Below are positions 17,023 through 56,531 of a stretch of DNA of 64,000 nt, piece by piece (the first letter of the stretch is position 1; each line of letters begins with the position of its first letter). Under the pieces are notes generated by a model that did not search any database, was not told the origin of the DNA, and saw nothing but the letters and a program-made list of their open reading frames with translations. Origin of the DNA: Candidatus Gottesmanbacteria bacterium (GTDB lineage: Bacteria; Patescibacteriota; Microgenomatia; UBA10105; UBA927); assembly GCA_030679255.1 (NCBI GenBank), contig JAUXTO010000022.1:128915-192914 (forward strand). The letters run 5' to 3'. The position numbers and the translations under genes were made by a program.

Positions 17023-17028
17023 AGTTTT

Positions 17029-24790: not shown

Positions 24791-26321
24791 CCGTACTCGT
24801 TCCGGTCTGGAAGGTCCCCGTGGGGCTCGTCACATAAACGCCTTCGATTGCTGGAGTGTTCGACGAATACAATCCACCGACGGAGGAGGCAACGGTGATA
24901 TTGCCGTTGACGATGAAGGCAGCAAAGCCCGATCCCGTCAGCGTCACTTTCCCACCAAGGGTGAGATTTCCATTAACAATAACTATAACCGTTTCTCCGT
25001 CGGCGACCGCCCAATCTCCGCTGGTCGTCATATTTCCCACCACATAGTAAGGGGTGGCGCGCGACGCGGGTTTGGCAACGGCTGTGAGATCTGCGAATGC
25101 ATCAGCCGTCGTCCCTCCCCCGAACCGGCGGTAAAAAAGATCATAATAATTTATATTTGCGTAGGCCGCATTGGCAAGTTGATTGGTCGAGGAGACATAG
25201 CTTTCTCCAACCAGGAGCGGACTGGCGTCAAAATCATAGCTTGTGCCGTAGGTGACCAGTCCCGGCGTCCCGCCGGATCCATCGAGCGCAAACGTCCGCG
25301 GACTGACCGACGCCGAAACCGGAGATGTCACGGCCCCCGATCCATACACATTACCGCCTCCGCCGGTTTGCACCCAAGGGCCGGAGAAGGTGTAGCCCAA
25401 TTGCCAGGTGATGGTATCCCCATCCACGGGCACGGAAAGCGTCGTCGAGAGTCCTTCGCCGGAAAGGGCAGCGTTGAGCACCCGACTCCAACACGCACGG
25501 GCCAAGGTGTAATCACTAGCGGCCGTGGGGGAGATCGTGTAGCTCCCGCCGACGATGGGGGAGAAGGATACATAATTATTGCCTGACTGGATTTGCGCCG
25601 TGGGTTGACTCGCCGATCCGGGGGTGAAGGCGTGGCTCGTGCCGGTTAAACCCGTGGTTGATGCCGCGACCGCTGTGCAGGACGTATCAGCAGCCGTAAC
25701 CTGCACGGCTTTGGCCTGGATCGCCCCCACACAATCGATGGTCTGGGTGTAGCCGGTATAGCAATCATACCCCACGGTCCTACTTTTCTTGGCCGGGCTT
25801 GCCGAGCAGACCGACCACGCGCTCACGTACGGCCCACCTTCCGTGCATCCCGGCGCGGGCGTACCGGACGGTGGAGGGGGCGCACTCCCGCCGGTCGGAA
25901 CCGGCGGGGGAGTCGATCCCGGCGGGGGAGTCGTCGTCACCGTTGGCGCCGTAGTCGGCGTCGGCAGCGCCGTCCCGCAATCCCCGGGATTACAATACGT
26001 ACAACAAATTTGTTGGATACAAGGGGCAGGATTCTGAATACAATCTGGTGGATCAGCTACGTATTCCAGTCGATATCCCGGAGTACAGTTTGGCGTGAGA
26101 TAAGGGGCTGTTCCACAATTTAGCCATACTTGTTCTAACTTTTGTCCACAATAATTTTGATTTACACTTGTACAAGATGTGGAGGTTCCTCCGCAGTTTG
26201 CCGAACAAAAATTTTGAGCAGATACGCTTGTCACCAAAAAAACCGAGGCAAAAAAGAAACCGACAATTATCGTGGCAAGCGTTTTAATAAATTTATTTAC
26301 ATCCATAGACAAGTAAAACAT
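24597..26321 (-). CDS. secreted/surface protein with Cys-rich domain, Pro/Thr-rich linker and large C-terminal domain
   Basis: N-terminal TM or signal segment, many paired Cys residues, and the linker PTPTTAPTVTTTPPPGSTPPPVP. The last 60 codons or so are encoded by repeat copy B. Confidence 0.5.
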   Translation of the reverse strand: MFYLSMDVNKFIKTLATIIVGFFFASVFLVTSVSAQNFCSANCGGTSTSCTSVNQNYCGQKLEQVWLNCGTAPYLTPNCTPGYRLEYVADPPDCIQNPAPCIQQICCTYCNPGDCGTALPTPTTAPTVTTTPPPGSTPPPVPTGGSAPPPPSGTPAPGCTEGGPYVSAWSVCSASPAKKSRTVGYDCYTGYTQTIDCVGAIQAKAVQVTAADTSCTAVAASTTGLTGTSHAFTPGSASQPTAQIQSGNNYVSFSPIVGGSYTISPTAASDYTLARACWSRVLNAALSGEGLSTTLSVPVDGDTITWQLGYTFSGPWVQTGGGGNVYGSGAVTSPVSASVSPRTFALDGSGGTPGLVTYGTSYDFDASPLLVGESYVSSTNQLANAAYANINYYDLFYRRFGGGTTADAFADLTAVAKPASRATPYYVVGNMTTSGDWAVADGETVIVIVNGNLTLGGKVTLTGSGFAAFIVNGNITVASSVGGLYSSNTPAIEGVYVTSPTGTFQTGTSTVVGKERLVGQGIFVAGSFLLQRDLEGISQNTTTAAELFLYNPRLLISMPDSMRDVPITWEEVAP

Positions 26322-26853
26322 CCAATAAATACTTCTTATCTCGGCCTTCCTGTTCCTGAAAAACTCCGGTCACCCAGGTGTCCGGCTCTATCCTTTTATA
26401 TGTCTCTTTATATAAAAAGAGCTTGCCTTGTTTCAGAAACGTATCTCTATTGGTTTGGAGCGTTGCTACATATTTGGAAAGATCCAGGTACGTAGAATAT
26501 GCCAGGGCTAAACTTCCATCAGCAAGTTTTATAAATTTATCCCTACACTCAATTACGCTTGTATCAGTCGCAGATACAACATAGGTCTTCTGTGACCAAA
26601 GGCTGAATGTTTCGCGGTTTACGCTGCTTATCACCCCCTGAATCTGGAGCATCTTAGGAGAATTGGAAAGCGTGGTTACGTAATTCCTATCCTGTTTTTT
26701 GTCGAGAAGATTGGTCGGGGTATTTCGATCTGCCTCTGTAACATAGATGGGTCGGGGCGGTGGAGGAAAACTAAACTTACGTATACCGATAATAACAAAT
26801 ACAAAGGCGCTTACAATAAGTAATCCAAACAAAAGAAAGACTAATTTTTTCAT
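26293..26853 (-). CDS. membrane-anchored hypothetical protein
   Basis: N-terminal TM helix LVFLLFGLLIVSAFVFVIIGI; no recognisable motif. Confidence 0.4.
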   Translation of the reverse strand: MKKLVFLLFGLLIVSAFVFVIIGIRKFSFPPPPRPIYVTEADRNTPTNLLDKKQDRNYVTTLSNSPKMLQIQGVISSVNRETFSLWSQKTYVVSATDTSVIECRDKFIKLADGSLALAYSTYLDLSKYVATLQTNRDTFLKQGKLFLYKETYKRIEPDTWVTGVFQEQEGRDKKYLLDVLLVYGCK

Positions 26854-26940
26854 GGGCATTGCTATACCCATTTGACCATAAATTAGCAATTAATACAAGA
26901 GGATTTTAAATCAACTGTGGAATATTTACGCAGTATTCTA

Positions 26941-29085
26941 CTACTCATACAACCTTGCCCTAACAAGCAAGTGAAATTTCTGACTATCATAAAGTGTTTT
27001 CATCAGGGCACGACGAGCATCTTGATCAGACAACGCAAGAATCTGTTTTCCTATACTATTGGCACCTTTCATTCCAATATTATCTTCAAGAAACTTTCCT
27101 TGATAAGCAAAGCTTGGATTATATTGTGAGGATGTCTTTGATGCATCATTCACATCAACTAATCCCATGCCAGTTGCCAGAAATATTTGGAACATCTGCC
27201 CAGGCGTTGGCTCCTTACCCACTTGCGCTTCCCAGAACGGTTGTCCATTTGGCAGCGTTGCATTTTTATGAAAATCTCTTGTACCCAACACCGAATCAGT
27301 ACTACCGATAGTATCGGTTATTCTCCCAATGGTAATAATATACGTATTCGGTTTCTCGATGGGGATATAAACGTGCATTTTAACTTTTATATCAACGCTT
27401 TTTCCAATACTCCAATCCATCTTCGGCAACGTCACATCATGTCCTCCGGCATAAATAGCCATTTGATAATATGCTGTATATTGGTATGGGATATCTTTAC
27501 CTAGTGGATCTAGCGTCGGCTGCAAATTAAAGCTTGGCTTTTGATAGGCGGGGTCCGCCTTTATTTTTTTAATCTTTTCTTGTAAGCTAGGTGTATTTAT
27601 CGCGTCAAATTTTTCTTTTGCTAAACGTGTTGCATATTCAGAATTTATTGCACAACATTCCGCAAAATTCACCGGTGGATTTAAGACCCAATTCCGTGCC
27701 TCCGGCGTCGAGGTCGGGGCAAAAGTAGGAGTAACCGTCGGGACGGCAGGCTTTGTCGGGGACACCTGTTGTTCAGCTAATTTAAAAGCACTGAGCAGGA
27801 TGTTTCCCATCATCGTTCTAAACCCGTCCGGGGTCTTTGACGCGCCACTTCCCGAGTCGGTTAATTGGGTTGATTTTCCTAACTCCTTGTCTACTAGCCA
27901 TAACGACTCCCCATCAAACACCATGCTCCACTTTCCTATCACTATTTTTCCATTCCTGGCTTCTCCAAGCTGGAATACCTTCTTACCAACTGTAGAGGAA
28001 GCTTCGTCTGTAACCAATGCGTATCCCTCACATGGATTGCCTTGCGCGTCACAGCGTACAAAAAATGGTACCGATCGTGTTGATTTGTCTTTTCCGAGAA
28101 ATACGGCCTGACCAACAGCCCATCGATCGCTAGAATTAAATGAGGCATCTGAACTGACGGGGCGTAAAACCACTAACTCATCAACGCCTTCCTGTGTTAG
28201 AAATTGTACGGGTCGATCGAATTGGTATTGCTCCGATCCGAATGCAACGCTGTACCACGGTTTCGTCGATGCGTTGACAAGATCTTTAAAAGATGTTGCC
28301 CTATTATCTATTTTTGCCGGGTTTTCTACCCGAACAGGTTGGACTGACGATATTGGCGTACATGCACTTAAAACTAAACTTGACGCTACAACACCATTGA
28401 CTCCCCATCGAAACGCTTTTATTTTTTTAAACCTTCTCCCAAGAGAATCTTTCTTGGGCGTTTTAATGGGTATTCCGGTTTCTGCCATTAAACCAGCGGC
28501 TAGCCCGATGCCAAACAAGGGGCCTAGTCCACCATTCGCTTCAGTGGGAGCATCAGAAGTAAACAATGTTCCTGCGGACGAATTTGGCCCAGTTTGTCGC
28601 AATTTTGCGTTCCTTAATTTTGTTAGATCCCAGTCGTTTGCTTCTGCGAGTAGTGCTGCGTCTGGAGAAGCGCCGCCTGCTTGCCTCACTGCAGCTTCAC
28701 GCGTAATCAAACCGGAATCTTCTGCTCCACGAATTGCACTCAAAAATTCTATTCTCTGTGCATGCTGCATCGCCAATTGCACCTCAAGGGAAACTGGCTG
28801 TCCAAAGCGTGTCCTCGGTTTTTCCGGCATCACACTAAATACTTCAAACCCGCTTGGAGTCAAACCAACATAATGAGTGGCGTTATGTCGAACAAGGGAG
28901 ATAACTTGTGTAGGAGTTAAAAGATCGCCTTTTTGATCGTCAACGAAAAATTTGTCGTGGACATTTTCCCAATCTGTTGAAATACTACTTGGATTAATAT
29001 GGGCTTCAGATTCACCAAGCAAATATCCTTCGTGCCTCACAAAAAAATCTGGATGTGTCGCGTAGGCCTCTGTAGAGTTAATCAT
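26941..29085 (-). CDS. large hypothetical protein with internal lipoprotein-type signal (possible lipoprotein if translation starts internally)
   Basis: Around residue 205-250 the sequence MAETGIPIKTPKKDSLGRRFKKIKAFRW-GVNGVVASSLVLSAC has the n-region, h-region and LSAC lipobox of a lipoprotein signal. Confidence 0.45.
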   Translation of the reverse strand: MINSTEAYATHPDFFVRHEGYLLGESEAHINPSSISTDWENVHDKFFVDDQKGDLLTPTQVISLVRHNATHYVGLTPSGFEVFSVMPEKPRTRFGQPVSLEVQLAMQHAQRIEFLSAIRGAEDSGLITREAAVRQAGGASPDAALLAEANDWDLTKLRNAKLRQTGPNSSAGTLFTSDAPTEANGGLGPLFGIGLAAGLMAETGIPIKTPKKDSLGRRFKKIKAFRWGVNGVVASSLVLSACTPISSVQPVRVENPAKIDNRATSFKDLVNASTKPWYSVAFGSEQYQFDRPVQFLTQEGVDELVVLRPVSSDASFNSSDRWAVGQAVFLGKDKSTRSVPFFVRCDAQGNPCEGYALVTDEASSTVGKKVFQLGEARNGKIVIGKWSMVFDGESLWLVDKELGKSTQLTDSGSGASKTPDGFRTMMGNILLSAFKLAEQQVSPTKPAVPTVTPTFAPTSTPEARNWVLNPPVNFAECCAINSEYATRLAKEKFDAINTPSLQEKIKKIKADPAYQKPSFNLQPTLDPLGKDIPYQYTAYYQMAIYAGGHDVTLPKMDWSIGKSVDIKVKMHVYIPIEKPNTYIITIGRITDTIGSTDSVLGTRDFHKNATLPNGQPFWEAQVGKEPTPGQMFQIFLATGMGLVDVNDASKTSSQYNPSFAYQGKFLEDNIGMKGANSIGKQILALSDQDARRALMKTLYDSQKFHLLVRARLYE

Positions 29086-29930: not shown

Positions 29931-30284
29931 TCATGGATAGTTGTGTTGCAATTTTTTTTGCAGTACTACCAGCTGCTTTTTAAGGATTGGAAGTTCTTGC
30001 TCCACTATCTCCCACACCCTACCCATGCTCATTCCAGCATACTCATGAATGGCCACATTGCGAAATCCTACAATAGACCGCCACTGAGTTTCGGGTGAAA
30101 GAACGCGAATATCATCAGGGATGCGGGTAGATGCTTCCCCGATTATCATCAGCCTACGAATTACGGAATCCTGTTTTTCCTTATCTCTGGAAAAATCCAC
30201 CTCCGTGACACCTGATACATACTCTTCAATAAGCGCTATCGCCTCGAGCATATCACTCACAAACACAAGAATATTTTTATTCAT
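29931..30284 (-). CDS. hepT: HepT-like toxin (DUF86/HEPN)
   Basis: FRNVAIHEYAGMSM carries the HEPN motif. It overlaps the upstream MNT gene by 4 nt. Confidence 0.8.
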   Translation of the reverse strand: MNKNILVFVSDMLEAIALIEEYVSGVTEVDFSRDKEKQDSVIRRLMIIGEASTRIPDDIRVLSPETQWRSIVGFRNVAIHEYAGMSMGRVWEIVEQELPILKKQLVVLQKKLQHNYP

Positions 30285-30574
30285 AATTTCGCCTCGTACA
30301 TCGTCACTGCATCAGCTAATATGCCGTCCTTAAACTCAGGGCGCAATGCAACATATTCAACGAGGTCTACGTGGCGGCCAAACCGTTCTGAAAGCTCTTC
30401 TTGTAGTCCAAAAAAGTCGAGTGCTCTTCCTTCTCCCATTTCCACAAGGATATCGATATCGCTACTCGCGCTTCCTGCTTCGCCGCGGGCAATAGATCCA
30501 AAAAGTGCAGCTTTTCGAACCTTATACTGTTTAAACAGCTCGGTTGTCTTTTGTTTTATCGCTTGTATATCCAT
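30281..30574 (-). CDS. mntA: MNT nucleotidyltransferase antitoxin
   Basis: LFGSIARGEAGSASSDIDILV. The start is trimmed to MDIQAIK. Confidence 0.8.
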   Translation of the reverse strand: MDIQAIKQKTTELFKQYKVRKAALFGSIARGEAGSASSDIDILVEMGEGRALDFFGLQEELSERFGRHVDLVEYVALRPEFKDGILADAVTMYEAKL

Positions 30575-30605
30575 AACAAGAGTATAGCATGATAACTCAC
30601 GAATT

Positions 30606-30668
30606 TCCAAAAAAAATACCCCGCCTGGACGGAGTTTATTCTGCCGTTTTATCAAGTGCAATAAAAAT
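30606..30668. repeat. cassette-boundary repeat X2 (partial; hairpin + ttattctgccgttttatc tail)
   Basis: aatttccaaaaaaaataccccgcctggacggagtttattctgccgttttatcaagtgcaataaa matches the 3' half of X1. Confidence 0.75.
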
Positions 30669-31610: not shown

Positions 31611-31922
31611 TCATAGTATTTGAATACCATGGGTTTTTACTTCATGAACCAATAAATTATATTTATCATCAAAATCGGCAGGATTAAATGCTACTGGTTC
31701 AATTCTGCTGTCCACTTTTAATGTTTCGAGGCGCAAATCCATTTCCTCGTCAAAATAGTCTTTCCCAAACGCGGGGGATATGATGCATACATCGATATCG
31801 CTTCCATCATGGATAAACCCTCTTGCAAACGAACCAAACAGATAAGCAGACTGCACCGGATATTTATGGGATATGAGTGCTAAATACTTTTTCAATAATA
31901 TTGTTACGTCGGCTTTACTCAT
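31611..31922 (-). CDS. MNT-type nucleotidyltransferase (antitoxin-like)
   Basis: LFGSFARGFIHDGSDIDVCI, a GSx10DxD NTase motif. It overlaps the upstream HEPN gene by 4 nt. Confidence 0.75.
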   Translation of the reverse strand: MSKADVTILLKKYLALISHKYPVQSAYLFGSFARGFIHDGSDIDVCIISPAFGKDYFDEEMDLRLETLKVDSRIEPVAFNPADFDDKYNLLVHEVKTHGIQIL

Positions 31923-32344
31923 AAAGAAAAATGTGAAATAAGCACTATTCTAATTTCTGTCGCTTTTTGAAACCACAAGTCTGCGTATTCTTTATTGGCT
32001 TTTTTATAAAAATTTTTCTTGTAATCATCGTAACGCGCAGAGAGATTAAAGGAAGATAGTTCTTTTAGATCAGATACCTGGGACTGGGACATCTCAATTT
32101 CTGCTCTCTTGGCCAACTCCACCAGATCATGAATAGCCAACGGATGACTGTCCTTACGATGATAATGGAGACCTTTGAGTAATTTCTCAAGCGATAGGTG
32201 GATAAAAAATAATGCATAATCATATCTCTTCCCCCCAGCGTAAATTTCCTGAGAAAACTCCCAGTCCTTATCCGATGTTTGCTTCCAAAAAGCTACCACT
32301 TCTTCTTGCGTCATGGTTACATTATATACTAATGTTTTCGTCAA
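31919..32344 (-). CDS. HEPN domain protein (toxin-like)
   Basis: Alpha-helical protein of 141 aa paired with the MNT gene. The partner order HEPN then MNT is inverted relative to the two HepT/MNT pairs. Confidence 0.65.
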   Translation of the reverse strand: MTKTLVYNVTMTQEEVVAFWKQTSDKDWEFSQEIYAGGKRYDYALFFIHLSLEKLLKGLHYHRKDSHPLAIHDLVELAKRAEIEMSQSQVSDLKELSSFNLSARYDDYKKNFYKKANKEYADLWFQKATEIRIVLISHFSL

Positions 32345-35067: not shown

Positions 35068-35853
35068 ATGAAAAACACGGAGTTGTTTCCACTCACCCAA
35101 ACGCTGAGTGTCGCGTTGCTTTTTGCCAAGCGCGATATTTCCTCGCGGTACCTAGGATCCATCCTGGGTCCTCTTTGGGTCATCATCTCGCCCCTAGCCA
35201 CCGCAAGCATTACGACGATGGTATTTTCCGTGGTTTTTCGCCATGCATCAGAAGGAGTTCCTTATTTTTTTGTCGTACTCTCCGGATTACTTTCCTGGGG
35301 ATTTTTTAGCGCGTCTATTTCCCATGCTACCCGTTCGCTGGTCATCAATCGCCATATCATCTTAGCCCACAAATTTCCCCTTGCAGCACCAGTAATCGGA
35401 TCAATTGTTGGACGAATTGCAGATTACGTCATCGTGCTTTTGTTTCTTTTCGCTCTCCTGGTTTTTTTCGGTCATTCAGTCTCCCTCACAACGTTTTTTT
35501 TCCTTCCTCTTGTGCTCATCTTACAGCTTGCTCTTCAAATCGGGTTCGGGCTTATGCTCGCTGCTCTTAACTCCTATTACCGTGATGTTCAAAACGTCGT
35601 CGACGTTGCGCTCCAACTCGTGTTTTATACAACCCCCATCCTGTATCCACCTTCTGCCATACCACAACCCTATCGAATGTTCATACAATTTCACCCTATG
35701 TCCCTTGCCGTTGAAGCCACGCGGGCAATCCTCCTCACCTCCCGCGTTCCCGTCTATGAATTATTAGCGTTCACCGTCTGGTCATCCGTCATTATTACTG
35801 TGGGAATATATGTATTTCATAAGCTCGCCCGCCGTATGCCTGACGTCATATAA
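35068..35853 (+). CDS. wzm: ABC-2 type polysaccharide export permease (Wzm/TagG-like)
   Basis: Six TM helices; the N-terminus KRDISSRYLGSILGPLWVII is typical of ABC-2 permeases. Confidence 0.85.
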   Translation: MKNTELFPLTQTLSVALLFAKRDISSRYLGSILGPLWVIISPLATASITTMVFSVVFRHASEGVPYFFVVLSGLLSWGFFSASISHATRSLVINRHIILAHKFPLAAPVIGSIVGRIADYVIVLLFLFALLVFFGHSVSLTTFFFLPLVLILQLALQIGFGLMLAALNSYYRDVQNVVDVALQLVFYTTPILYPPSAIPQPYRMFIQFHPMSLAVEATRAILLTSRVPVYELLAFTVWSSVIITVGIYVFHKLARRMPDVI

Positions 35854-35859
35854 CAACGT

Positions 35860-36867
35860 ATGGGTAAACCACCCGCTATCACCGTCACGCATATTTCTAA
35901 ATCCTTTGATACCAAAAGAATCCGGAGTCTCAAGGACCGTTTGATACGAAAAAATAACGGGGAAAATTTGGTAAAAGCAATCGATGACATATCTTTTGTC
36001 GTGCCCGAGCGATCCATCATCGGACTCTACGGCCCTAATGGGTCAGGAAAATCGACGCTTCTGCGGCTCCTTGCCGGCATCATGACTCCGGACACCGGGA
36101 CAATTGCGACGCGCGGCTCGACCGCTGCGGTTCTGGATCTAGGCGCGGGGCTCTATGAAGAAGCGACCGGACGCGACAATGTATTTTTCGTCGGATCCCT
36201 CATGGGGATGACCTCAAAAAAAATCCACAAGGCTTTCCCGGATATCACCACATTTGCGGACATCGGTTCCTTTATAGACTCACCGGTCAAAATGTACTCC
36301 ACCGGCATGCGCGCACGACTGGCTTTTGCAATCGCCATCCACGCAAGCCGCGCTGATATACTCCTCTTAGACGAGATATTGGCGGTAGGTGACGCTGACT
36401 TTCAACTAAAATGTTTATCTGCCATGCGCGCGCGGGCAAAAACCAAAACCGTCATCCTTGCTAGCCACAACCTTGCGATACTCCAAAGGCTTTGCTCGCG
36501 CGTCCTTCTGTTGTCCGGCGGCCGTCTCCTCAACGAAAGCCAACAAAAAGTCATCGACCTTCTCAAGTCTCTTCCTGCGGGAGAATCGTTTACCGCCGAG
36601 GCCCTCTCCAACAGCATGCTTCCAATCATTCGCAAAGGCGACGCTCTTGCCGTTCACCGGTCGCCCTGGGAAAAAGTGAGCGTAGGAGATATCATCGCAT
36701 TCGCTTTCCCCAATCTCCCGCAAATCATCGTCCACCGCGTCACGGATGTGATAATCAAAAACAAAGAAAAAATCTGCTCAACCCAAGGAGATAGCGTTCT
36801 ATTTGAAGATTCCTGGCTCGTAAAAAAGTCAGACTATTTGGGAACCGTTAGGCGGTCTCCTCGATAA
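35860..36867 (+). CDS. wzt: polysaccharide ABC exporter ATP-binding protein with C-terminal extension (Wzt/TagH-like)
   Basis: Walker A GPNGSGKST, signature YSTGM, Walker B ILLLDE. A C-terminal domain of about 110 aa follows. Confidence 0.85.
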   Translation: MGKPPAITVTHISKSFDTKRIRSLKDRLIRKNNGENLVKAIDDISFVVPERSIIGLYGPNGSGKSTLLRLLAGIMTPDTGTIATRGSTAAVLDLGAGLYEEATGRDNVFFVGSLMGMTSKKIHKAFPDITTFADIGSFIDSPVKMYSTGMRARLAFAIAIHASRADILLLDEILAVGDADFQLKCLSAMRARAKTKTVILASHNLAILQRLCSRVLLLSGGRLLNESQQKVIDLLKSLPAGESFTAEALSNSMLPIIRKGDALAVHRSPWEKVSVGDIIAFAFPNLPQIIVHRVTDVIIKNKEKICSTQGDSVLFEDSWLVKKSDYLGTVRRSPR

Positions 36868-37114
36868 GGCCAAGTTTTTTGTATTCCCTGAGAAATCGGG
36901 CAACATCCTCCTCGACCTCGCTTTTGGGAGCGTCATATTCCTGACACATTTTTTTCACTATTACGTCGGGCGTTGTGGGTTTTTTGAGAAGTGACCAGAT
37001 GAACCCGGCAGTCTCATTGAGTTCACGGATGTGTTTTTTGTTGGGTTCGAGGAGAATCCAAGTGTTTCCGGTCTTTTTCGTTGTAATAGTATTATTTCGG
37101 ACGATCATTACCAT
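36848..37114 (-). CDS. PqqD-family protein (RiPP recognition element-like)
   Basis: About 88 aa; AGFIWSLL...TPDVIVKKMCQEYDAPKSEVEEDVARFLREYKKLGLIE matches the PqqD/RRE fold pattern. Confidence 0.6.
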   Translation of the reverse strand: MVMIVRNNTITTKKTGNTWILLEPNKKHIRELNETAGFIWSLLKKPTTPDVIVKKMCQEYDAPKSEVEEDVARFLREYKKLGLIEETA

Positions 37115-37165
37115 CAATCTATCAATAAAAGCGCAACTTGCACGATAATACGCGTATCGTGAGGC

Positions 37166-37273
37166 TTACAATACTGTTTTTTTACTTTCATGGTTCAAGT
37201 CGGAGCCAGCAACACGGTTATCGCGCGTCGGAAATCTTTCGGCTTTCTGTACATTTTTTTCTTTCTCATGCAT
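37166..37273 (-). CDS. unannotated 35-aa peptide ORF with strong Shine-Dalgarno (candidate precursor peptide)
   Basis: Manual translation: AGGAGGTG, a 0-nt gap, then ATG and MHEKEKNVQKAERFPTRDNRVAGSDLNHESKKTVL. It sits between the QueC-like stop and the PqqD-like start. Confidence 0.3.
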   Translation of the reverse strand: MHEKEKNVQKAERFPTRDNRVAGSDLNHESKKTVL

Positions 37274-37293
37274 CACCTCCTGATGAACTCATG

Positions 37294-38232
37294 CTATCGC
37301 CCGGACAATAGACCTGTCAAGCGCTGGGAGAAAACCTTGCCTCTGGATCGAATCCATCCCTCTGTTTCATAAATCGTTTTATCCACAACTCCCGCTTGTT
37401 TAAACTCCCACCGCCTGGTGTCGCACCCACCACATCTTCCGCAATGCACAGAGCCGCTCCGATAACAACTAAACGTGCGCTCAAGCGGCAACATTGCTTC
37501 GACTCCGATACGAATAATGTCTGCTTTGCGCGCAAACCATCCGGTTTCTTTTTCGATATAGAGAGATGCGTACTGAAGTGTGGGATCGGCAAGAAAGGTC
37601 ATCATATAGAGGAGGCTTGTACGCAGAAAGGTCAATGTTTGGCTTTTCACCCCCATCCCGTCCATGGCTGTCACCCCACAAAATATCGTCGTAAACGCGT
37701 GAGGGAGCCTGGACCGGAGTGATCCCATATAAAGCGCCGCCTGACCAGCTTCAAGCATAACGGATCCAGCACCGGGTCGCCAATTAAATGTTTTATGCTG
37801 CGGATCATACGAGTCCAATATTGCACGGGGTGTAAGCTCACTGCTTTTTTTCATATCAAAAATTTCTCTTGCTGCCGTCACCTCCGGTACAACAAGCGGC
37901 GCATGATACAAGTCTACAAATTTCTTCCGGTACATCTTGCTAAAAAAACTCAATGAAGAAACTTGAGCGTGATGATTATCATTGGTAACCATAAACGGGT
38001 AGACGTGAAGCCCAAACTCCTTCATCAGAATATACCACGCAACTGTTGAATCTATTCCACCCGACGCCATGAGTACGACGCGGGATCCTGGGCGCGGCAT
38101 GCGGAACACAAATCCACGTTTTTTCGAGACATATCGCTCAATCATGGCAACAAGATCGAGGTCTTCGTATTTTCGTTTACTCAATCGAGCAACAAATTGG
38201 TCTCTACTGATAGTAGGAATTGAGCTGAACAT
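37294..38232 (-). CDS. QueC-like PP-loop ATPase
   Basis: PP-loop VLMASGGIDSTVAW and a C-terminal zinc motif SCYRSGSVHCGRCGGCDTRRWEF, as in QueC. There is an N-terminal extension of about 50 aa. Confidence 0.6.
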   Translation of the reverse strand: MFSSIPTISRDQFVARLSKRKYEDLDLVAMIERYVSKKRGFVFRMPRPGSRVVLMASGGIDSTVAWYILMKEFGLHVYPFMVTNDNHHAQVSSLSFFSKMYRKKFVDLYHAPLVVPEVTAAREIFDMKKSSELTPRAILDSYDPQHKTFNWRPGAGSVMLEAGQAALYMGSLRSRLPHAFTTIFCGVTAMDGMGVKSQTLTFLRTSLLYMMTFLADPTLQYASLYIEKETGWFARKADIIRIGVEAMLPLERTFSCYRSGSVHCGRCGGCDTRRWEFKQAGVVDKTIYETEGWIRSRGKVFSQRLTGLLSGR

Positions 38233-38242
38233 ATTGGTAGAT

Positions 38243-38986
38243 CTATTTTTGCAGTACCCCTAAAGCATTCACCCCATCTATAAACTCCAACATATGGTGA
38301 CCTTTTAGCTCCTTCCAAAATTTCCATACCCCAAACTCACTGTCGTTATATGCGCCCTTGGTGTTGATGTCGTGAAGCGCCATCATTCCTCCATCGGTAA
38401 GTCGCGGCCAAAACAAATTAAAGTCCTTTTTCACCCCCGCATAACTATGGTCTCCGTCTACATATATATAGGTATATTTGCGGTTCGGGTATTTCCTCGC
38501 ATAGTCCACCGACGTCATGACGTAGGTCGTGAGATGGTCTCCTATTCCGAGTACAGAAAAATGTTCCTGTGGATTATTTTTTTTCCAAAACCCGGTACCT
38601 CCCCAATTGCCCGGCTCGCCCGCGTCATACCCCGCGTCCACAAAATCGACGTGGCCGTGGCGGTTGTATTTACACGCCAGCGCACATACCGCAGGGATAA
38701 ATCCCTGCCGGGATCCAATACAGAGCACGCGTTCGGGATTGAGTGTGTTGATAAACCCGGCATGCAAAAATCCAAATCCTAAATTTCCGGTTTTCGTGAT
38801 CGCCCCATGGCCCATGGAGCCGTTAAAATATTTTATGAGATAGGATGTGTTCCCAAAGCGGTATAAATCCGATGTCATTTTTTTCCGCAACATTCCCTTT
38901 TCGACGAACGCATGGTAAGCATCGTATAATCCGAATAGATTTGCCAATCGCTCAATCCGTGAAAATCCTATCTTTCGCAGTTTCAT
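38243..38986 (-). CDS. class I SAM-dependent methyltransferase (TylF/CmcI, Methyltransf_24-like)
   Basis: IYVDGDHSYAGVKKDFNLFWPRLTDGGMMALHD is the signature of the macrocin/CmcI O-methyltransferase family. Confidence 0.65.
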   Translation of the reverse strand: MKLRKIGFSRIERLANLFGLYDAYHAFVEKGMLRKKMTSDLYRFGNTSYLIKYFNGSMGHGAITKTGNLGFGFLHAGFINTLNPERVLCIGSRQGFIPAVCALACKYNRHGHVDFVDAGYDAGEPGNWGGTGFWKKNNPQEHFSVLGIGDHLTTYVMTSVDYARKYPNRKYTYIYVDGDHSYAGVKKDFNLFWPRLTDGGMMALHDINTKGAYNDSEFGVWKFWKELKGHHMLEFIDGVNALGVLQK

Positions 38987-39117
38987 ATTGGAAATGGTTG
39001 CGGTCAGTTGTTCCTGACGAACTCCTGATCTTTGCCGTGTTTGTCCTCTCCCACCTAATCGTTGCCAATTATAAACCATATTCGATAGTAATTATTATCT
39101 ATATCTTGTTTCTGGTA

Positions 39118-40437
39118 ATGGTAACGAAAAGCATAACTTCATCATTGTGGTACGCGACTCTCGGTACCCTATTTTTTTTTAAAGCAAAATATTTCTCCAT
39201 TCCGTTTATTTCTGAGATGGCCGCGGGTGAGGGGCTTACCACGGAAACGCCGTTCGTATACTACATTTCGTTCTCCATGATACTCCTTATCCTCCTCATT
39301 TTTTCTATTCTCCGCGCACGCAAAGGCGCCTCCGTTGTCATGCCGGTATTTGGAGAGTCCGTCCTGCTTGCTGTCTTTCTTGTCATCGGCTCCGTCTCAT
39401 CGGTGCTATCGGCATTTGGCACCATAAGTTGGTTTTCTCTTTTTATCATGTTTGAATATGTACTACTGTTTTACGTCAGCATTATCATGTGTTCAGATAA
39501 AAAAGTTTTCCGGTTGACGATCCGGATGATTATAGCGTTTGTCGCCCTGAACGCGCTTCTTATCGTCCTCCAAAAATTGCGTGGTGGACCAATCGGCATT
39601 ATCCTCGAAGATATCTCATCTGGGGCATTTGGACGATTTCCCACGGAAACGCCCGGGTTCTATCGACCCGGAGGTATCTATTTTGAACCGAATCTTCCCG
39701 CGTCACTTATCAATCTCATACTCCCGGCAGCGTTATATTTTGTTCTGACGCACATAAAGGGATTGGTGGGCGTTGTGCTAAGAATGTCTTTACTAACGTT
39801 ACTCGCCGCGCTTATCGCTACGGGAAGTCGTGCAAATTGGGCAATTGGCGTTATCGCAATGTCGACAACCGCATGGTATTACCGGCAGAAAAATACATTA
39901 TCAACAATATTCACAAACCCACGGTTCATCGTTATGATAGCTATCGTTCTGCTCATGCTCCTTCCCACAATTTTTTCTAGAATCTCTTCAATCCCAATAT
40001 CGTTTACTGGTGATACCGGGGGGTGGCAGTTTCGCTTGCGGCACATAACTATTGCCAAAGATATCATGAGCACAAATATTTTTGGCGTGGGTTTGGATGT
40101 GTTCCAATATCATATTCTTGATCATTATTCGCCTACCTATTATTTCTCCCACTTCACCGCTCCACACAATGTCTTGGCAGAGGCAGGAAGCGCGACGGGC
40201 TTCATCGGGCTTGGAGTATTTATTTCTTTTTTCGTAGTTGTGTTGTATCGTCTCTTTAAAAATTTCAAAGGAGACAATGCTGCCGCATCTGGCATCAATG
40301 CCGCGTTATTGATAGGATATGCTACGTACCTGCTTTCTGCGCAAGTTTATCCATGGCTCTTTACGCCGCCCTTAAGCGAATTGTCCTGGATTATCCTGGG
40401 ATGTCTCTATGCAAAAACCGCAGCAATCAAAAAATAA
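39118..40437 (+). CDS. O-antigen ligase-like polytopic membrane protein (Wzy_C)
   Basis: Many TM helices and the Wzy_C motif TGSRANWAIGVIAMS. The start is uncertain: the longer ORF from 38845 would overlap the divergent methyltransferase gene. Confidence 0.5.
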   Translation: MVTKSITSSLWYATLGTLFFFKAKYFSIPFISEMAAGEGLTTETPFVYYISFSMILLILLIFSILRARKGASVVMPVFGESVLLAVFLVIGSVSSVLSAFGTISWFSLFIMFEYVLLFYVSIIMCSDKKVFRLTIRMIIAFVALNALLIVLQKLRGGPIGIILEDISSGAFGRFPTETPGFYRPGGIYFEPNLPASLINLILPAALYFVLTHIKGLVGVVLRMSLLTLLAALIATGSRANWAIGVIAMSTTAWYYRQKNTLSTIFTNPRFIVMIAIVLLMLLPTIFSRISSIPISFTGDTGGWQFRLRHITIAKDIMSTNIFGVGLDVFQYHILDHYSPTYYFSHFTAPHNVLAEAGSATGFIGLGVFISFFVVVLYRLFKNFKGDNAAASGINAALLIGYATYLLSAQVYPWLFTPPLSELSWIILGCLYAKTAAIKK

Positions 40438-41272
40438 CATCCAGATCCTCATCACCAACAAGCTCAAGCGTCTCACGCTTTTTGATTATTTCATGGGTAT
40501 TCTCCTCGTGGGTATTGCTGTGTTTTTCATATTTACATTCAGCAGAACGGAACAAACCGTGCTCGTCGACCTCACGTTTGAACGGGTGGGACAGGGGAAC
40601 AACTTCTTCCCTCCGGAGTATTGGGCCGCGGAAGATATTACCGTTGGAGCCGTAGTGTACAACGCGCTCGGTAATAAAATCGCGTCGGTCAAAAAAGTAT
40701 CCCGTGTCCCGTGGCGCGGGGGATCGCGGCTCTACACATACCTGACGATTGAGCTGAAGGCGCTCTACCATAAGGCAAACCGGACATACTCCTATGAAGG
40801 GTCTGCCTTGGCTGTAGGCCAAAAACTCACGTTCCTCATCCGCAACACTAACTACACCGGTATTGTAAAAAATATATATGTAAATGATCTGCCAACGCCT
40901 CCGGACGCCATCAAAAGCGCGCAGGTTTCCTTATACTGCAGAGAGTACGAACCGTGGCATGCCGACGCTATAAAAAATCTCACAGTCAAAGATCAAAATG
41001 GAAAAATAAAGGCAAAAATTCTGTCGGCACAAATCTCCCCGGCTCAAATCGCCGTAGAAACATCAGATGGCAGAATTGTCGAGGCGCGCCATCCGTATAA
41101 AAAAGATCTCGATCTCACCGTTGCGCTCTATGATCTGAGATGCACGGATAATACTATGTGTTTATATAATGAAACTCAATCGTTTTTTATCGGCTCAGAG
41201 CTCTGGTTGGATTCTGGCACAACGTGGGTGGGGGCGCGCTGTTCAGTGAAAGACTTTACGCTTCTCAAGTAA
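40409..41272 (+). CDS. membrane-anchored hypothetical protein
   Basis: One N-terminal TM helix; no recognisable motif. It sits within the glycan locus. Confidence 0.4.
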   Translation: MQKPQQSKNNIQILITNKLKRLTLFDYFMGILLVGIAVFFIFTFSRTEQTVLVDLTFERVGQGNNFFPPEYWAAEDITVGAVVYNALGNKIASVKKVSRVPWRGGSRLYTYLTIELKALYHKANRTYSYEGSALAVGQKLTFLIRNTNYTGIVKNIYVNDLPTPPDAIKSAQVSLYCREYEPWHADAIKNLTVKDQNGKIKAKILSAQISPAQIAVETSDGRIVEARHPYKKDLDLTVALYDLRCTDNTMCLYNETQSFFIGSELWLDSGTTWVGARCSVKDFTLLK

Positions 41273-42637: not shown

Positions 42638-43727
42638 TGTGTCTGTGGCCATCCTCTATTGGAGCACAAAAATCGGTGGAGTCGCAACGATTATTCCATC
42701 GATTGCGGCTCGTCTCCGACAACGCCATGCAACGAGTGTTTCCGTCTTTCTCAAGCGGCGGGACGGAATAATCACACGTGCTGCAGAGAGAGCGCGTTTT
42801 CATTACTTTTCAAAAAACACGTATTCCGGGGCCAAAATTGCATTCATGTCTTGGCTTTTGCATAACCTGTTCATCGCGAAACCGGATTATATCCTCGTCT
42901 TTCTCAACCGATTCACGCTTGTAGCCGTTCTCTATAAATTGTCAGCGGCCCTACTTGGACGTAAAACGGTTATCGTCATAGACCAGGCTGCGGTTCTCGA
43001 TTCCTATCTTTATCAGTATGAATCGTGGTACTGGAAGCCCATGATGCGCGCGTGCTTCACATTCGTTGACCGCATCATCGTCAATAGCCGTGCGATTGAA
43101 AAGGATCTCAATCATAATTTCTCGGTTTCTTCTGCTAAAATACGACTCGTCAGGAGTTGGGTTGTCCCAGCAAAACGTGCGCGCACTATGAAAAAAAGAT
43201 ATGATTGCATTTTCGTCGGCCGTCTGTCTCCCGAAAAGGGGATTGAGACCCTTCTGGATACGGCTGTTTATTGTCAAACTAAAATACCCGGTTTTTCGCT
43301 TGCAATCATCGGTGACGGAGCGTTGAAAGGGTGGATGATAGAAGATATCCGAAAAAGGGGATTGGCCCCAAATATTTCATATTTAGGTTATCAAATAAAT
43401 CCCCGGAAATTTATGCGGCAGGCAAGTCTCCTTCTTCTTCCTTCTTATAATGAGGGGTTGCCCATGGTTATTCTTGAGGCATATTCCGTCGGGATTCCTG
43501 TTGCAGTAACACCGTTTTTGGGGGCCGGCGAGGCGGTGGAAAATGGTAAAACAGGAATTATTACCGGTCGCGACGAGTATCCGGCAGCAGTCTGCCGCCT
43601 GCTTGGCGACACAAAAAAACTAGCAGACATGGGAAGGGCTGCACATATAAAAGCAAAAAATGATTTCGGGATGCAGAATCTGGATCGTTTTGTCGAAACG
43701 ATCTTTGCTACCCGGCGTGCATCTTAA
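42627..43727 (+). CDS. family 4 glycosyltransferase (GT-B)
   Basis: The C-terminal GT4 region FVGRLSPEKG...EGLPMVILEAYSVGIPVAV is intact. Confidence 0.85.
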   Translation: MKTDVSVAILYWSTKIGGVATIIPSIAARLRQRHATSVSVFLKRRDGIITRAAERARFHYFSKNTYSGAKIAFMSWLLHNLFIAKPDYILVFLNRFTLVAVLYKLSAALLGRKTVIVIDQAAVLDSYLYQYESWYWKPMMRACFTFVDRIIVNSRAIEKDLNHNFSVSSAKIRLVRSWVVPAKRARTMKKRYDCIFVGRLSPEKGIETLLDTAVYCQTKIPGFSLAIIGDGALKGWMIEDIRKRGLAPNISYLGYQINPRKFMRQASLLLLPSYNEGLPMVILEAYSVGIPVAVTPFLGAGEAVENGKTGIITGRDEYPAAVCRLLGDTKKLADMGRAAHIKAKNDFGMQNLDRFVETIFATRRAS

Positions 43728-45513
43728 GCCATGCGTCTGCAATCACGATGTTCCAGACGGCAAGCGCATCGTTGTGTTGTTGAGACAAAAATCCATTAAT
43801 AATATTGCCTGTTGTTTCTTTTGACAGTACCTCCTGTAATCGATCATGGGGATCAAGCGTCCGCTCGACGATGTCCCGCATTTCACCGCGAAGCCACTGC
43901 TCAAGAGGAAGGGAAAATCCGTGTTTTTCTCTGTTCGTTATTTCCGCAGGTAAATAGTTTTGAGCCACGGACCGCAATAAATATTTATCTTGATACCCCG
44001 ATCTCAAAAGGTCCGCTGACAATTCCACGAATTGCATCAGCCGTTCATCCAAATATGGAGCCCGGGATTCGATGGAGTGAAGCATTGTCATTTTATCTAT
44101 TTTCATGCAAAGTTGTTCTCCCACATAGTACCGGAGGTCATACTGCATGAGCCGAAGGGGAGGGAGGGCGCTCGACAACTGGTGATTATTTTCAAGTTCG
44201 CTCCAGGCTTGATGAAGAAGGTGGAGGTGATGACGACGAAATCGGACCCCTGCATGCAAATCAATATTGTATCGCGCGGATGTATAAAGCATGTCCGGCC
44301 ATCCGATGAGACTCGCGAGCCTCGTAGATGGCCTTATACTCATTGCTATCTCCGCCAACCATCGTGGTACCCTTATTCTTCCCTCCTGATGCAAAGCGTT
44401 CCTGTAATGCGGGTACCCTCCGAATAGTTCGTCTGCTCCTTCGCCGCTGAGAATCACTTTTACGTGTTTTTGAGCTTCTTGTGATAATAGATATGTTGGA
44501 AAAATCGCAGGATCAGCAAACGGTTCATCGAGCTTTTTCATCACCTCGTCCCACACTCCGCGGATTGATCCCCCGGTCATCACTATTTCCGTGTGATGCG
44601 TCTGCAGGCACCGAGCCACAACTTGGGATGAGAATGATTCATCATAACCGGGATGGTCAAACGCAACGGAAAACGTTTGAACGGGTTGGCGGGTATGTCT
44701 CTTTACGAGAGCAGTAAGGAGGGCCGAGTCAACACCGCCACTTAAAAACACCCCAAGCGGCGCATCGGATACGACTTTCTCTTTAACTATTGTATTGAGC
44801 GTCTTGTCTAAAGATCGTATCGCGTCGTCACTGCACCCCACATGGTCGTCACGTGTCCCACAGTAGCTAACGAACGCTTTTTTTCCATACAACTGCCTAT
44901 CAACGCTTCGATTGGAGAGGTTTATGGACACCGCCTCTCCGGGTAGCACTTTATAGACATTTTTATAGATCGTCGTACGCAGCGGCTGGTATCCGAATGA
45001 TAGATAGGTTCGTATTGCGTCCGGAGTCACACTGCTGTCGATAAAAATTTTCAGTTCGGATCCAAAAAACACTTCATCCTCTGTGACGCTGTAGTACAGC
45101 GGTTTTTCGCCAAATTTGTCCCGCGCAAGCACCAATGTGTTGGATGCAGAATCATATATTGCCATCGCGAACATTCCCACAAATTGATCTAGGCAGGAAG
45201 CTCCATATTGAAAAAATGCAGGTAAAATTATTTCTCCGTCGCAATGTGTTTTCGGCCTATATCCCGTGCTCTTCACGATTTCCTGTACGTTATAGAGCTC
45301 ACCGTTATAAATTAAAGACAGCCCTTTATACGAAAACGGGTAGAGACCTCGATGCAGATCCCGGATCGCCAGGCGGTTCTCCCCAACGCTAAACTGTTTA
45401 CCGGGAAATGTCTGAATCGTTGTTTCATCCGGACCACGATGGCGCATAAGCGCTAAGGCGTCTTTGGTCCACTTTCGATGTTGATTTCCGTAACGTCCTG
45501 CAATCGCGCACAT
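43708..45513 (-). CDS. asnB: asparagine synthetase (glutamine-hydrolysing)
   Basis: N-terminal MCAIAG with Cys2 (Ntn amidotransferase) and the PP-loop FLSGGVDSALL; 601 aa. Confidence 0.9.
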   Translation of the reverse strand: MCAIAGRYGNQHRKWTKDALALMRHRGPDETTIQTFPGKQFSVGENRLAIRDLHRGLYPFSYKGLSLIYNGELYNVQEIVKSTGYRPKTHCDGEIILPAFFQYGASCLDQFVGMFAMAIYDSASNTLVLARDKFGEKPLYYSVTEDEVFFGSELKIFIDSSVTPDAIRTYLSFGYQPLRTTIYKNVYKVLPGEAVSINLSNRSVDRQLYGKKAFVSYCGTRDDHVGCSDDAIRSLDKTLNTIVKEKVVSDAPLGVFLSGGVDSALLTALVKRHTRQPVQTFSVAFDHPGYDESFSSQVVARCLQTHHTEIVMTGGSIRGVWDEVMKKLDEPFADPAIFPTYLLSQEAQKHVKVILSGEGADELFGGYPHYRNALHQEGRIRVPRWLAEIAMSIRPSTRLASLIGWPDMLYTSARYNIDLHAGVRFRRHHLHLLHQAWSELENNHQLSSALPPLRLMQYDLRYYVGEQLCMKIDKMTMLHSIESRAPYLDERLMQFVELSADLLRSGYQDKYLLRSVAQNYLPAEITNREKHGFSLPLEQWLRGEMRDIVERTLDPHDRLQEVLSKETTGNIINGFLSQQHNDALAVWNIVIADAWLKMHAG

Positions 45514-54904: not shown

Positions 54905-54967
54905 TGCTCCCGCCTCTGCCCGCACCGTGTGCTCGTCACATAATTCTATCACGTGTATATCAAGAAT

Positions 54968-56341: not shown

Positions 56342-56360
56342 CTAGGGGGCCCCCGGCCCA

Positions 56361-56499: not shown

Positions 56500-56531
56500 T
56501 CCTTACTTACTACTACGACGAATAACAACAT

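Follow-up and report, generated by a model that had tools for sequence, protein, structure and literature searches.

INTRODUCTION

The linear polyphosphorylated peptides (LPPs) of Bacillota are ribosomally synthesized and posttranslationally modified peptides (RiPPs) made by systems of the LppA/LppB/LppS type (Popov et al., Nat Commun 2026, PMC13381572). In these systems, a RiPP recognition element (RRE) of the LppB type presents a leader with a YxxP motif, and LppS, a SipW-like protein, has been shown experimentally to be an RRE-dependent leader peptidase; along with LppB, the proteins TbiB1, PbaB1, and TfuB1 are RREs that bind [Y/W]xxP leaders (PMC13381572). A very short YxxP peptide, a 21/22-mer, is also the substrate of the RRE-fused enzyme FzmA in fosfazinomycin biosynthesis, which yields a C-terminal hydrazide or amide that is followed by the action of a methyltransferase that uses S-adenosylmethionine (SAM) (PMC13622209), and PesC of the nitrilobacillins makes a C-terminal nitrile on a peptide (PMC13060819). 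The scaffold of QueC, for its part, has been repurposed in Cap9 and QatC to modify proteins (PMC13329287, PMC13279940, bioRxiv 10.1101/2025.04.06.647259). Here we describe a locus within a 64-kb stretch of DNA (the window, i.e., the whole of the stretch analyzed) from a contig of Candidatus Gottesmanbacteria (Patescibacteria/candidate phyla radiation), in which a QueC-family PP-loop ATPase is encoded next to two small candidate precursor genes, designated pepA and pepB, and a PqqD-family protein. These genes very probably encode an RRE-dependent peptide maturation system with the QueC-like protein as a tailoring enzyme; the fuller reading, that of an RRE-dependent (RiPP-type) peptide-maturation cluster in Patescibacteria, with a QueC-family PP-loop ATPase as the enzyme that defines the class and with the mechanism proposed below, is the one we favor, with moderate confidence.

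The comparison covered 21 loci with a member of the QueC-like family, whose enzymes are 24 to 100% identical to the window protein. The related loci retrieved (numbered L001 to L021) comprised 8 at 55 to 100% enzyme identity, 8 from species-representative genomes, and 5 more obtained by profile search. L016, a short PP-loop match alone, was not counted in this sample. Motif and fusion counts refer to 180 retrieved members of the enzyme family, and the peptide set numbered 26, drawn from the window plus 19 related loci; of the latter, 18 belong to the 19 of 21 family loci that encode a peptide. Pfam scans of the window covered open reading frames (ORFs) of at least 150 aa, and genes given below as not found in the window were sought among these ORFs.

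RESULTS

A QueC-family ATPase that lacks the QueC substrate motifs

The core of the module lies on the minus strand and comprises the following features.

37294-38232, minus strand: QueC-family PP-loop ATPase, 312 aa (Pfam QueC, PF06508, 47 bits)
37291-37320, minus strand: promoter-like site TTGACA-N18-TAGCAT, 10 of 12 consensus matches, within the 3' end of the QueC-like gene
37281-37276, minus strand: Shine-Dalgarno sequence AGGAGG, with a 6-nt spacer to pepA
37269-37195, minus strand: pepA, candidate precursor peptide gene, encoding MRKKKMYRKPKDFRRAITVLLAPT (24 aa)
37191-37114, minus strand: pepB, second candidate precursor peptide gene, encoding MKVKKQYCKPHDTRIIVQVALLLID (25 aa)
36848-37114, minus strand: discrete PqqD-family protein, a predicted RRE of 88 aa (MVMIVRNN...; Pfam PqqD, 69.7 bits)

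The 312-aa protein, publicly annotated as "7-cyano-7-deazaguanine synthase," contains an SGGIDS PP-loop and a C-x7-C-x2-C-x2-C zinc motif (C256/C264/C267/C270), both of which are invariant in alignments; across the family, an SGGxDS PP-loop was found in 161 of 180 members and the Cys4 zinc motif in 160. In contrast, the motifs YxQxHxxE, VPxRN, and YPDC, shown to be essential for QueC (PMC13329287), were present in 0, 1, and 0 of the 180, respectively. The protein did not pass the curated QueC equivalog TIGR00364 (34.1 bits against a cut-off of 150.3, matching model positions 159 to 201 only), and it scored 17 bits against the cut-off of 280 for the NCBIfam QatC model. An AlphaFold2 model built from a 34-sequence alignment (predicted local distance difference test score, 88) has the QueC/Cap9 fold, with template modeling (TM) scores against QueC, Cap9, and YcfA of 0.6 to 0.77 when normalized to the target and of only about 0.5 when normalized to the query, the latter because the protein carries internal insertions and, at its N terminus, a conserved extension of about 45 aa; the enzyme is about 90 residues longer than QueC. 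By these sequence criteria, the enzyme belongs to the QueC superfamily but is not QueC, Cap9, or QatC.

That the gene is an ordinary queuosine/preQ0 gene, i.e., a canonical QueC, as its public name and Pfam PF06508 match would suggest, is extremely improbable given the low equivalog score, the three missing substrate motifs, the added length, and the query-normalized TM score; moreover, relatives of the enzyme are fused to RREs, and no queD, queE, queF, or tgt was found among the window ORFs of at least 150 aa. A previous sequence-only reading had likewise held that this is not a standard queuosine gene, pointing to the zinc motif, the N-terminal extension, and the lack of queuosine partners, and each of these points stands. 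If the peptide-pathway reading holds, the public name is an annotation error. The protein shares with QueC, Cap9, and QatC the fold, the SGGxDS PP-loop, and the C-terminal four-Cys zinc motif, so that ATP-dependent carboxylate activation and amide formation are expected of it, whereas it differs from them in its missing substrate motifs, its extension and insertions, and its RRE and peptide partners, which stand in place of CD-NTase or QatABD. A role in antiphage defense as a Cap9/QatC system was considered and rejected: PADLOC returned a partial QueC match confined to the zinc-motif region and no defense partner genes (CD-NTase/Cap10 or QatA/B/D).

The structural comparison also bears on sulfur chemistry, in which the PP-loop enzyme would make a peptide thiocarboxylate or thioamide, much as TtuA, ThiI, LarE, and YcfA transfer sulfur. 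YcfA and TtuA/NcsA were among the top Foldseek matches, and the PP-loop gave a weak match to Pfam ThiI. However, the Cys motif is of the QueC zinc type rather than the Fe-S type with three Cys residues, sulfur-donor genes were not seen in the vicinity, and the peptides do not have the Gly-Gly C terminus of sulfur carriers, all of which make this chemistry very unlikely.

Clustered at 50% identity, the enzyme family comprises 147 clusters at E < 1e-30 and 446 at E < 1e-10, and its named members all come from Gottesmanbacteria, Microgenomates, Pacebacteria, or the "Patescibacteria group." About 30 of the 180 members are fusions in which the QueC-like enzyme carries a C-terminal PqqD domain, and one (P0020) has a C-terminal S24/S26 signal-peptidase-type domain instead.

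Two further observations concern the surroundings of the enzyme gene. In L017 (positions 1298-5828), the QueC-like::PqqD fusion gene occurs as two paralogs, and each has its own divergent small ORF with a YxxP motif; their neighbors include ScmC, a radical-SAM enzyme, an ATP-grasp enzyme of the D-Ala-D-Ala-ligase type, and a GT2 glycosyltransferase. A protein of 477 to 494 aa without a Pfam match is encoded in L004 and L007 by a gene that overlaps the QueC-like gene at the start of the latter.

The PqqD-family protein resembles RREs that bind YxxP leaders

Family-profile searches with the PqqD protein matched the solved proteins LppB (9X8Z; E = 3.7e-11), TbiB1 (1.6e-10), PbaB1 (9X90), and TfuB1, the E values for the four spanning 4e-11 to 1e-5. 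Its best solved relatives are thus RREs, in keeping with the Pfam PqqD score and with the RRE assignment made in the sequence-only reading. Within the group the protein is 73 to 88% identical, even where the enzyme is only 55 to 60% identical. It did not pass the curated lasso_PqqD models (NF033536, 38.7 against a cut-off of 80; NF033530, 37.7 against 70). As judged by these profiles, the protein is homologous to lasso B1-type RREs yet lies outside the curated families, and we assign it as a predicted RRE of the lasso/LPP type.

Tandem small genes encode peptides with a conserved YxxP segment

The gap of 176 nt (37118-37293) between the QueC-like and PqqD ORFs, all on the minus strand, had drawn attention before, when it was proposed to hide a single 35-codon precursor gene (37273-37166, minus strand) behind the AGGAGG. 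The gap and the Shine-Dalgarno sequence are there as described, and an ATG-initiated ORF of that length does exist, but it does not qualify as a gene. A mere 2 nt separate its ATG from the Shine-Dalgarno sequence, and when the gap sequences of relatives were translated in all frames, the ORF was missing or interrupted in every one of them, with no start codon in L001, L002, L008, and L009 and an early stop in L003 and L005; it is an out-of-frame artifact that overlaps pepA and pepB. The frame of the latter, shifted by 4 nt from the proposed ORF, holds homologous tandem ORFs in the relatives. Two precursor genes were found instead of one, in another frame, and the AGSDLNHE macrolactam that had been drawn from the discarded peptide is therefore moot.

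The two genes are tightly packed, with pepB starting 3 nt past the pepA stop codon and its TGA overlapping the ATG of the PqqD gene. The pepA peptide has a Lys/Arg-rich N terminus, a YxxP motif, and a variable, hydrophobic C-terminal half. Homologues of pepB were found in L004 to L009 (e.g., one ending in ...ITVALWWWDDW), while pepB is frameshifted in L001, L002, and L003. Between close loci, substitutions fell on first, second, and third codon positions 28, 27, and 55 times in pepA and 1, 4, and 11 times in pepB, a third-position excess in both genes. Among four loci whose enzymes are 81 to 88% identical, residues 1 to 12 of the pepA peptide were 100% identical and residues 13 to 24 only 47%; read from the alignment, this profile is the conserved-leader/variable-core signature of RiPP precursors. 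Small ORFs with a Shine-Dalgarno sequence and with leader and core features are thus conserved beside PqqD genes in related genomes, a comparison that the sequence-only reading had itself suggested.

Distant relatives, with enzymes of 24 to 36% identity, encode equivalent peptides (e.g., MKKQAKKYSKPELKKSKIKINFAFAVAK, MKKYVTPSETTVLLEVLAVVPE, and MVKKKKYIPPKSKKIKLKAILAT), with the gene placed between those for the enzyme and PqqD or just upstream of a divergent PqqD gene. The 26 peptides are 22 to 36 aa long, apart from one of 46 aa; all are Lys-rich, with two to six Lys/Arg residues ahead of the Y-x-x-P motif, and in the tail past the motif the hydrophobic pattern alternates. In 24 of the 26, 12 to 19 residues separate the YxxP proline from the C terminus. 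A six-frame motif scan of the window returned pepA and pepB only, compared to a mean of 0.57 matches in 100 shuffles; because the peptides themselves had supplied the motif, the scan is partly circular and shows positional specificity rather than serving as an independent test. In the other loci, the scan found peptides at the expected positions only, plus one extra in L018 (at 3813).

This extra YxxP peptide of L018 (3242-3813), MKVKKDNPKKPYKKPEVKVEKIEIYTW, is encoded directly upstream of a stand-alone SipW-like peptidase.

Candidate signals for expression accompany the peptide genes. GGAGG was found 5 to 8 nt upstream of pepA in 8 of 8 loci of the Gottesmanbacteria group, and a TTGACA-N17/18-TAnnAT sequence upstream of the peptide gene in all 15 loci examined, with an exact TTGACA in 14 and TTGACC in L018. 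The promoter-like site of the window, a consensus match only, stands just upstream of pepA, and the -35 hexamer of loci in the Gottesmanbacteria group falls within the invariant C-terminal codons of the enzyme, RLTG. Terminator-like hairpins within the module were no more frequent than in shuffled sequence, and Rfam and tRNA scans of the window gave no matches.

The Lys-rich character of all the peptides could also suit a reaction of reverse polarity, in which a small acid, 7-carboxy-7-deazaguanine (CDG) or another, would be adenylated and ligated to a Lys side chain or the N terminus of the RRE-bound peptide. Within the QueC family, protein modification is known for Cap9 and QatC only (PMC13329287, PMC13279940), Cap9 is the best solved sequence match for the zinc-motif region, and QatC, too, is without the canonical motifs yet is thought to use CDG. 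We nevertheless hold this polarity to be unlikely, since the CDG-binding motifs are missing from the family, no queD, queE, or tgt was found among the window ORFs of at least 150 aa, and the partial PADLOC match to QueC came with no defense partners; in addition, the peptides begin with Met-Arg or Met-Lys and expose no Gly, and their Lys residues sit in the conserved leader-like part, normally a region for recognition rather than modification.

A signal-peptidase domain is fused to the ATPase of an ABC-2 exporter

Four more features complete the module, three of them on the opposite strand.

35068-35853, plus strand: ABC-2 type permease, partner of the ATPase (Pfam ABC2_membrane, 60.7 bits; weak Wzm/KpsM-type NCBIfam matches)
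35860-36867, plus strand: ATP-binding cassette (ABC) ATPase, TagH/Wzt-like, with a C-terminal peptidase (Pfam ABC_tran and Peptidase_S24)
about 36589-36855, plus strand: signal-peptidase domain of about 95 aa (S26B, SipW/SEC11-like), SxSMxP...IVHRV...GD..D
38243-39079, minus strand: SAM-dependent methyltransferase (Methyltransf_24, TylF-like; Pfam, 58.7 bits)

The ABC ATPase gene is convergent with the PqqD gene, overlapping it by 20 nt, and the ABC-2 permease adjoins the module in nearly all loci. The closest solved relative of the peptidase domain is human SEC11A, and the homologues of the domain, which come from Patescibacteria, archaea, and eukaryotes, are "signal peptidase I" proteins of the archaeal type. 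The Ser (SxSMxP), His (vHR), and Asp (GD) residues are invariant, with the exception of the L001/L002 lineage, in which Ser is replaced by Arg. Since it is joined to a nucleotide-binding domain and lacks a membrane anchor, the domain must be active in the cytoplasm. It is fused to the ATPase in L003 to L005, L009 to L011, L013, L018, and L021; it stands alone beside the enzyme or the RRE in L014 and L015, L018 has a second, stand-alone copy about 2.3 kb upstream, and in L020 it is fused to a nucleoside triphosphate (NTP) transferase (NTP_transf_5). The earlier statement that no B2 protease is present is thus incomplete: a B2-type cysteine protease is indeed absent from the window ORFs scanned, but a SEC11/SipW-type peptidase domain is fused to the neighboring ABC ATPase. 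A search for its cleavage site by the -3/-1 rule and by the LPP register gave no consistent site with either.

With a peptidase at hand, a lasso-like order of events, a generalization of the earlier idea, can be envisaged, in which the peptidase would expose an N-terminal amine and the QueC-like enzyme would activate a core carboxylate and close a macrolactam, head-to-tail or head-to-side-chain. Homology links the RRE and the YxxP leader to the B1/leader pairs of lasso systems (TbiB1, TfuB1, and PbaB1, with NCBIfam lasso_PqqD matches below threshold), the four parts of RRE, peptidase, ATP-dependent PP-loop enzyme, and ABC exporter follow the same logic, and the enzyme-peptidase fusion P0020 suggests coupled action. 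However, the B2 protease is missing from the window ORFs scanned, and so is an asparagine-synthetase-like lasso cyclase, the sole Asn-synthase (43708-45513) having full glutamine amidotransferase domains and lying 6 kb away among glycosyltransferases. Nor do the peptides show a Gly/Ala...Asp/Glu core pattern: no Asp/Glu is conserved at core positions 7 to 9, and three of them are wholly without acidic residues. Any core would have very few residues, the peptides as a whole lack the length for a threaded lasso plus a leader of normal length, the exporter is of another type, and the peptidase is mostly exporter-fused, which suggests that cleavage comes last and not first. We thus find a lasso-like product improbable.

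A methyltransferase and a glycan-locus setting accompany the module

The methyltransferase gene lies upstream of the enzyme gene on the same strand, as noted previously. Its true start is probably internal, at Met 38986 or 38815, because the long ORF overlaps a divergent Wzy_C gene; no solved relative was found by sequence. Orthologues adjoin the module in L003, L004, L007, L010, L013, L015, and L021 and are 40 to 48% identical across all clades, an identity that exceeds the conservation of the enzyme itself. Other genes occur beside the enzyme more sporadically: a pyridoxal phosphate (PLP)-dependent decarboxylase in L010, L013, L018, and L021, and a FemAB-like protein and a radical-SAM SPASM (rSAM-SPASM) enzyme as extras in L021. 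The gene order QueC-like, small ORF(s), PqqD is seen in the window, L001 to L009, L014, L015, and L018, and a divergent arrangement in L010 to L013 and L021. Over the 21 loci, the parts were recovered as follows.

Adjacent RRE (discrete or fused) and YxxP peptide: 19 of 21 loci (missing in L019 and L020)
Peptidase: 15 of 21 loci (four of the remaining loci are contig ends)
Methyltransferase: at least 13 of 21 loci

In the L001/L002 lineage (87% identical; 6940-9730), pepB and PqqD are frameshifted, the peptidase Ser is changed to Arg (SNRM), and an AAA_14/DUF4143 pair is inserted between the PqqD and ABC ATPase genes, while the QueC-like gene is intact. This suggests that the parts of the module decay together in this lineage; homopolymer sequencing errors are also possible.

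The module is always embedded among glycosyltransferase, Wzy_C, DUF4330, and Bac_transf genes, which raises the question of whether it serves the glycan only, with the QueC-like protein a sugar amidotransferase, the methyltransferase capping the exported glycan, the ATPase C-terminal domain a noncatalytic cap binder, and the small ORFs incidental or regulatory. Consistent with this, the best scores of the ATPase and permease are those against TagH, Wzt, and Wzm, and sugar amidotransferases of the WbpG/WbuX type are PP-loop enzymes (PMC13329287), to which a weak match was found here. Such an account, however, leaves unexplained the conserved peptide genes with their promoter-like site and Shine-Dalgarno sequence, the RRE, the fusions of the enzyme to RRE and peptidase, and the invariance of the peptidase catalytic triad; the genomic context is no argument against a peptide pathway, as the RiPP clusters for LPPs and paeninodin also lie in capsule loci (PMC13381572). 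A role of the methyltransferase as a simple glycan cap, an option entertained before, is not obvious either, with an orthologue that travels with the module at such identity across all clades. We judge the glycan-only account highly improbable.

The DUF4330 protein (about 285 aa; 40409-41272 in the window) accompanies the module in three clades (L001 to L007, L014, and L018).

A proposed route from precursor to exported peptide

The core idea of the sequence-only reading, a RiPP-like module of hidden peptide gene, PqqD/RRE protein, noncanonical QueC-like ATPase, and methyltransferase, is thus strongly backed by comparative evidence, with the peptide itself and its frame replaced. In the peptide-maturation route that we propose, the RRE would bind the YxxP segment and present the peptide to the QueC-like enzyme, which, tethered to the RRE (covalently so in the fusions), would use ATP to adenylate a peptide carboxylate, most likely the C-terminal alpha-carboxylate located 12 to 19 residues past the YxxP proline. 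The enzyme would then transfer a nitrogen nucleophile, either ammonia, giving an amide or possibly a nitrile, or an amine, the latter being considered because in several loci a PLP decarboxylase adjoins the enzyme. Tailoring would fall to the methyltransferase. The leader, presented by the RRE as in LPP biosynthesis, would be removed at export by the cytoplasmic SipW-like domain of the ABC ATPase, by analogy with bacteriocin exporters that contain a peptidase, and the ABC-2 pump would export the product.

The C-terminal alpha-carboxylate is favored as the target because it is the only carboxylate present in every peptide, because its distance to the RRE-binding motif is narrowly constrained, and because FzmA and PesC, both known PP-loop enzymes on linear ribosomal peptides, act there. 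We hold this particular chemistry more tentatively than the pathway as a whole and rate its chances at slightly below even.

Several points weigh against the proposal. Every chemical step in it is inferred, and the sample of 21 loci is small. Two family loci, L019 and L020, show neither RRE nor peptide, and the promoter and Shine-Dalgarno support consists of consensus matches alone. The C-terminal residue is not conserved, which fits alpha-carboxylate chemistry but gives no positive signature of it, and the characterized protein-modifying relatives of QueC, Cap9 and QatC, run the reaction in the opposite sense, in which a small carboxylate is joined to an amine of the protein. The LPP register, i.e., a cut 12 residues past the proline, would leave a core of 0 to 7 residues. 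Finally, the TagH/Wzt polysaccharide-type transporter is the sole ABC-2 pair of the glycan locus and may serve the glycan; a separate Wzx/Wzy pair is found at 11.4 to 14.2 kb of the window.

This last point leads to a variant in which peptide and glycan meet. The peptide, or a modified C-terminal stub, would be ligated by the QueC-like enzyme to an amine on a lipid-linked glycan or cap as a chain-end tag, which the Wzt-like ATPase would recognize via its signal-peptidase domain and clip during export, a peptide version of the methyl and phosphate caps read by Wzt carbohydrate-binding domains. We consider such a tag a long shot, although, if true, it would account both for the constant setting of this RiPP superfamily (here, and as LPP and paeninodin in Bacilli) in polysaccharide loci and for the fusion of the peptidase to the one Wzm/Wzt pump that the locus has.

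Other features of the window

The AsnB-type asparagine synthase mentioned above (43708-45513, minus strand) is full length, with intact glutamine amidotransferase domains, lies in the block of glycosyltransferase genes, and is also conserved in both L001 and L002; amidation of a sugar or uronate is a more likely role for it than that of a lasso-type cyclase. Because dnaA and dnaN are adjacent (54953-57644, plus strand), the region of the chromosomal replication origin is probably covered by the window; the genes yidC, rnpA, and yidD are located at 19.9 to 21.9 kb. A 1,234-aa TraG/VirB4-like P-loop ATPase (60042-63746, minus strand) is split by an intein with a LAGLIDADG homing-endonuclease domain (Intein_splicing, LAGLIDADG_3). 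A TIR-domain protein (15732-16373) is encoded among NAD-related genes (14221-18093, minus strand), namely an NAD synthase (14221-15006), an isochorismatase/nicotinamidase-like protein (16483-17022), and a QRPTase_N-containing phosphoribosyltransferase (17029-18093).

Three gene pairs on the minus strand (22245-22881, 29931-30661, and 31611-32344) resemble nucleotidyltransferase/HEPN (DUF86) toxin-antitoxin systems and are candidates from sequence alone. One lies between the rnpA/yidD/yidC block and an unannotated GC-rich stretch, and two are just upstream of the glycan locus. At 24597-29085 (minus strand), three ORFs (574, 198, and 714 aa) have no Pfam match, and the stretch at 24 to 26 kb has a GC content of 0.56, compared to about 0.46 for the window.

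DISCUSSION

The nearest described relatives of this module by recognition and cleavage are the LPP systems. Both have a discrete RRE, for which LppB (9X8Z) is the best solved relative, a YxxP leader, a cytoplasmic SipW-like peptidase with Ser-His-Asp residues, precursors with a conserved N terminus and a variable C terminus, and a setting in a polysaccharide locus. They differ in the enzymes, a QueC-family ATPase and a methyltransferase here as opposed to an HprK-like kinase and an NTP transferase in LPP, and in the exporter, an ABC-2 (Wzm/Wzt-like) pump with an ATPase-fused peptidase here as opposed to an MsbA-like pump; no HprK-like kinase, NTP transferase, or MsbA-like exporter was found among the window ORFs scanned. 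The precursors here are also shorter (22 to 36 aa, and one of 46, versus 35 to 200 aa), only the YxxP part of the LPP motif YxxPxVLxHQxIxFETxxS is shared, and LPPs have been reported as restricted to Bacillota, whereas this module is found in Patescibacteria.

ScmC and NTP_transf_5 genes occur in the sampled loci only as a separate, neighboring set, in L018 and L020. In L018 (9154-11275), an LPP-like set that adjoins the module consists of a second PqqD, ScmC (possibly kinase-like), and NTP_transf_5; in L020 (4595-5902), an LPP-like set stands beside the QueC-like module and includes the peptidase::NTP transferase fusion.

In its working logic the module is closer to FzmA and PesC, where a PP-loop enzyme with an RRE, fused or alongside, likewise works on a very short YxxP peptide, a methyltransferase takes part, peptidases release the product, and the precursor genes are overlooked by ORF callers; action at the C-terminal carboxylate, in our case, is what we infer. 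QueC itself performs the conversion of carboxylate to amide to nitrile, as PesC does on a peptide. However, FzmA and PesC are asparagine-synthetase-like with a glutaminase domain, while the enzyme here is a QueC-type zinc protein without one; hydrazine and phosphonate genes are absent, and the hypervariable C termini contrast with the conserved Val-Arg end of FzmZ. The RRE, leader motif, and peptidase thus relate the system to the LPP/lasso lineage, and its working logic resembles that of FzmA and PesC.

A QueC-type enzyme with an RRE is not mentioned in the LPP, fosfazinomycin, nitrilobacillin, or RRE-mining papers; a 2026 survey of PF06508 does not have this cluster among its ten and mentions neither PqqD nor peptides, and literature searches linking QueC-like enzymes to RiPPs or precursor peptides returned nothing on this family. 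For an RRE-dependent peptide pathway, the class-defining enzyme, the exporter-peptidase architecture, and the phylum are therefore new.

If the peptide-maturation reading is true, QueC-type PP-loop/zinc proteins would be a third ATP-dependent lineage that modifies ribosomal peptides, after the lasso cyclases and the FzmA/PesC type, and would form a fifth functional branch of the QueC superfamily. The signal-peptidase domain on an ABC-2 ATPase would constitute a new leader-cleaving exporter, functionally analogous to the C39 peptidase domain of bacteriocin exporters. Genes now named as queuosine enzymes would be reread as belonging to a defined peptide module of five or six genes, and pathways built on an RRE and a SipW-type peptidase would extend from Bacillota to the genome-reduced Patescibacteria, in which specialized peptide chemistry is hardly known.

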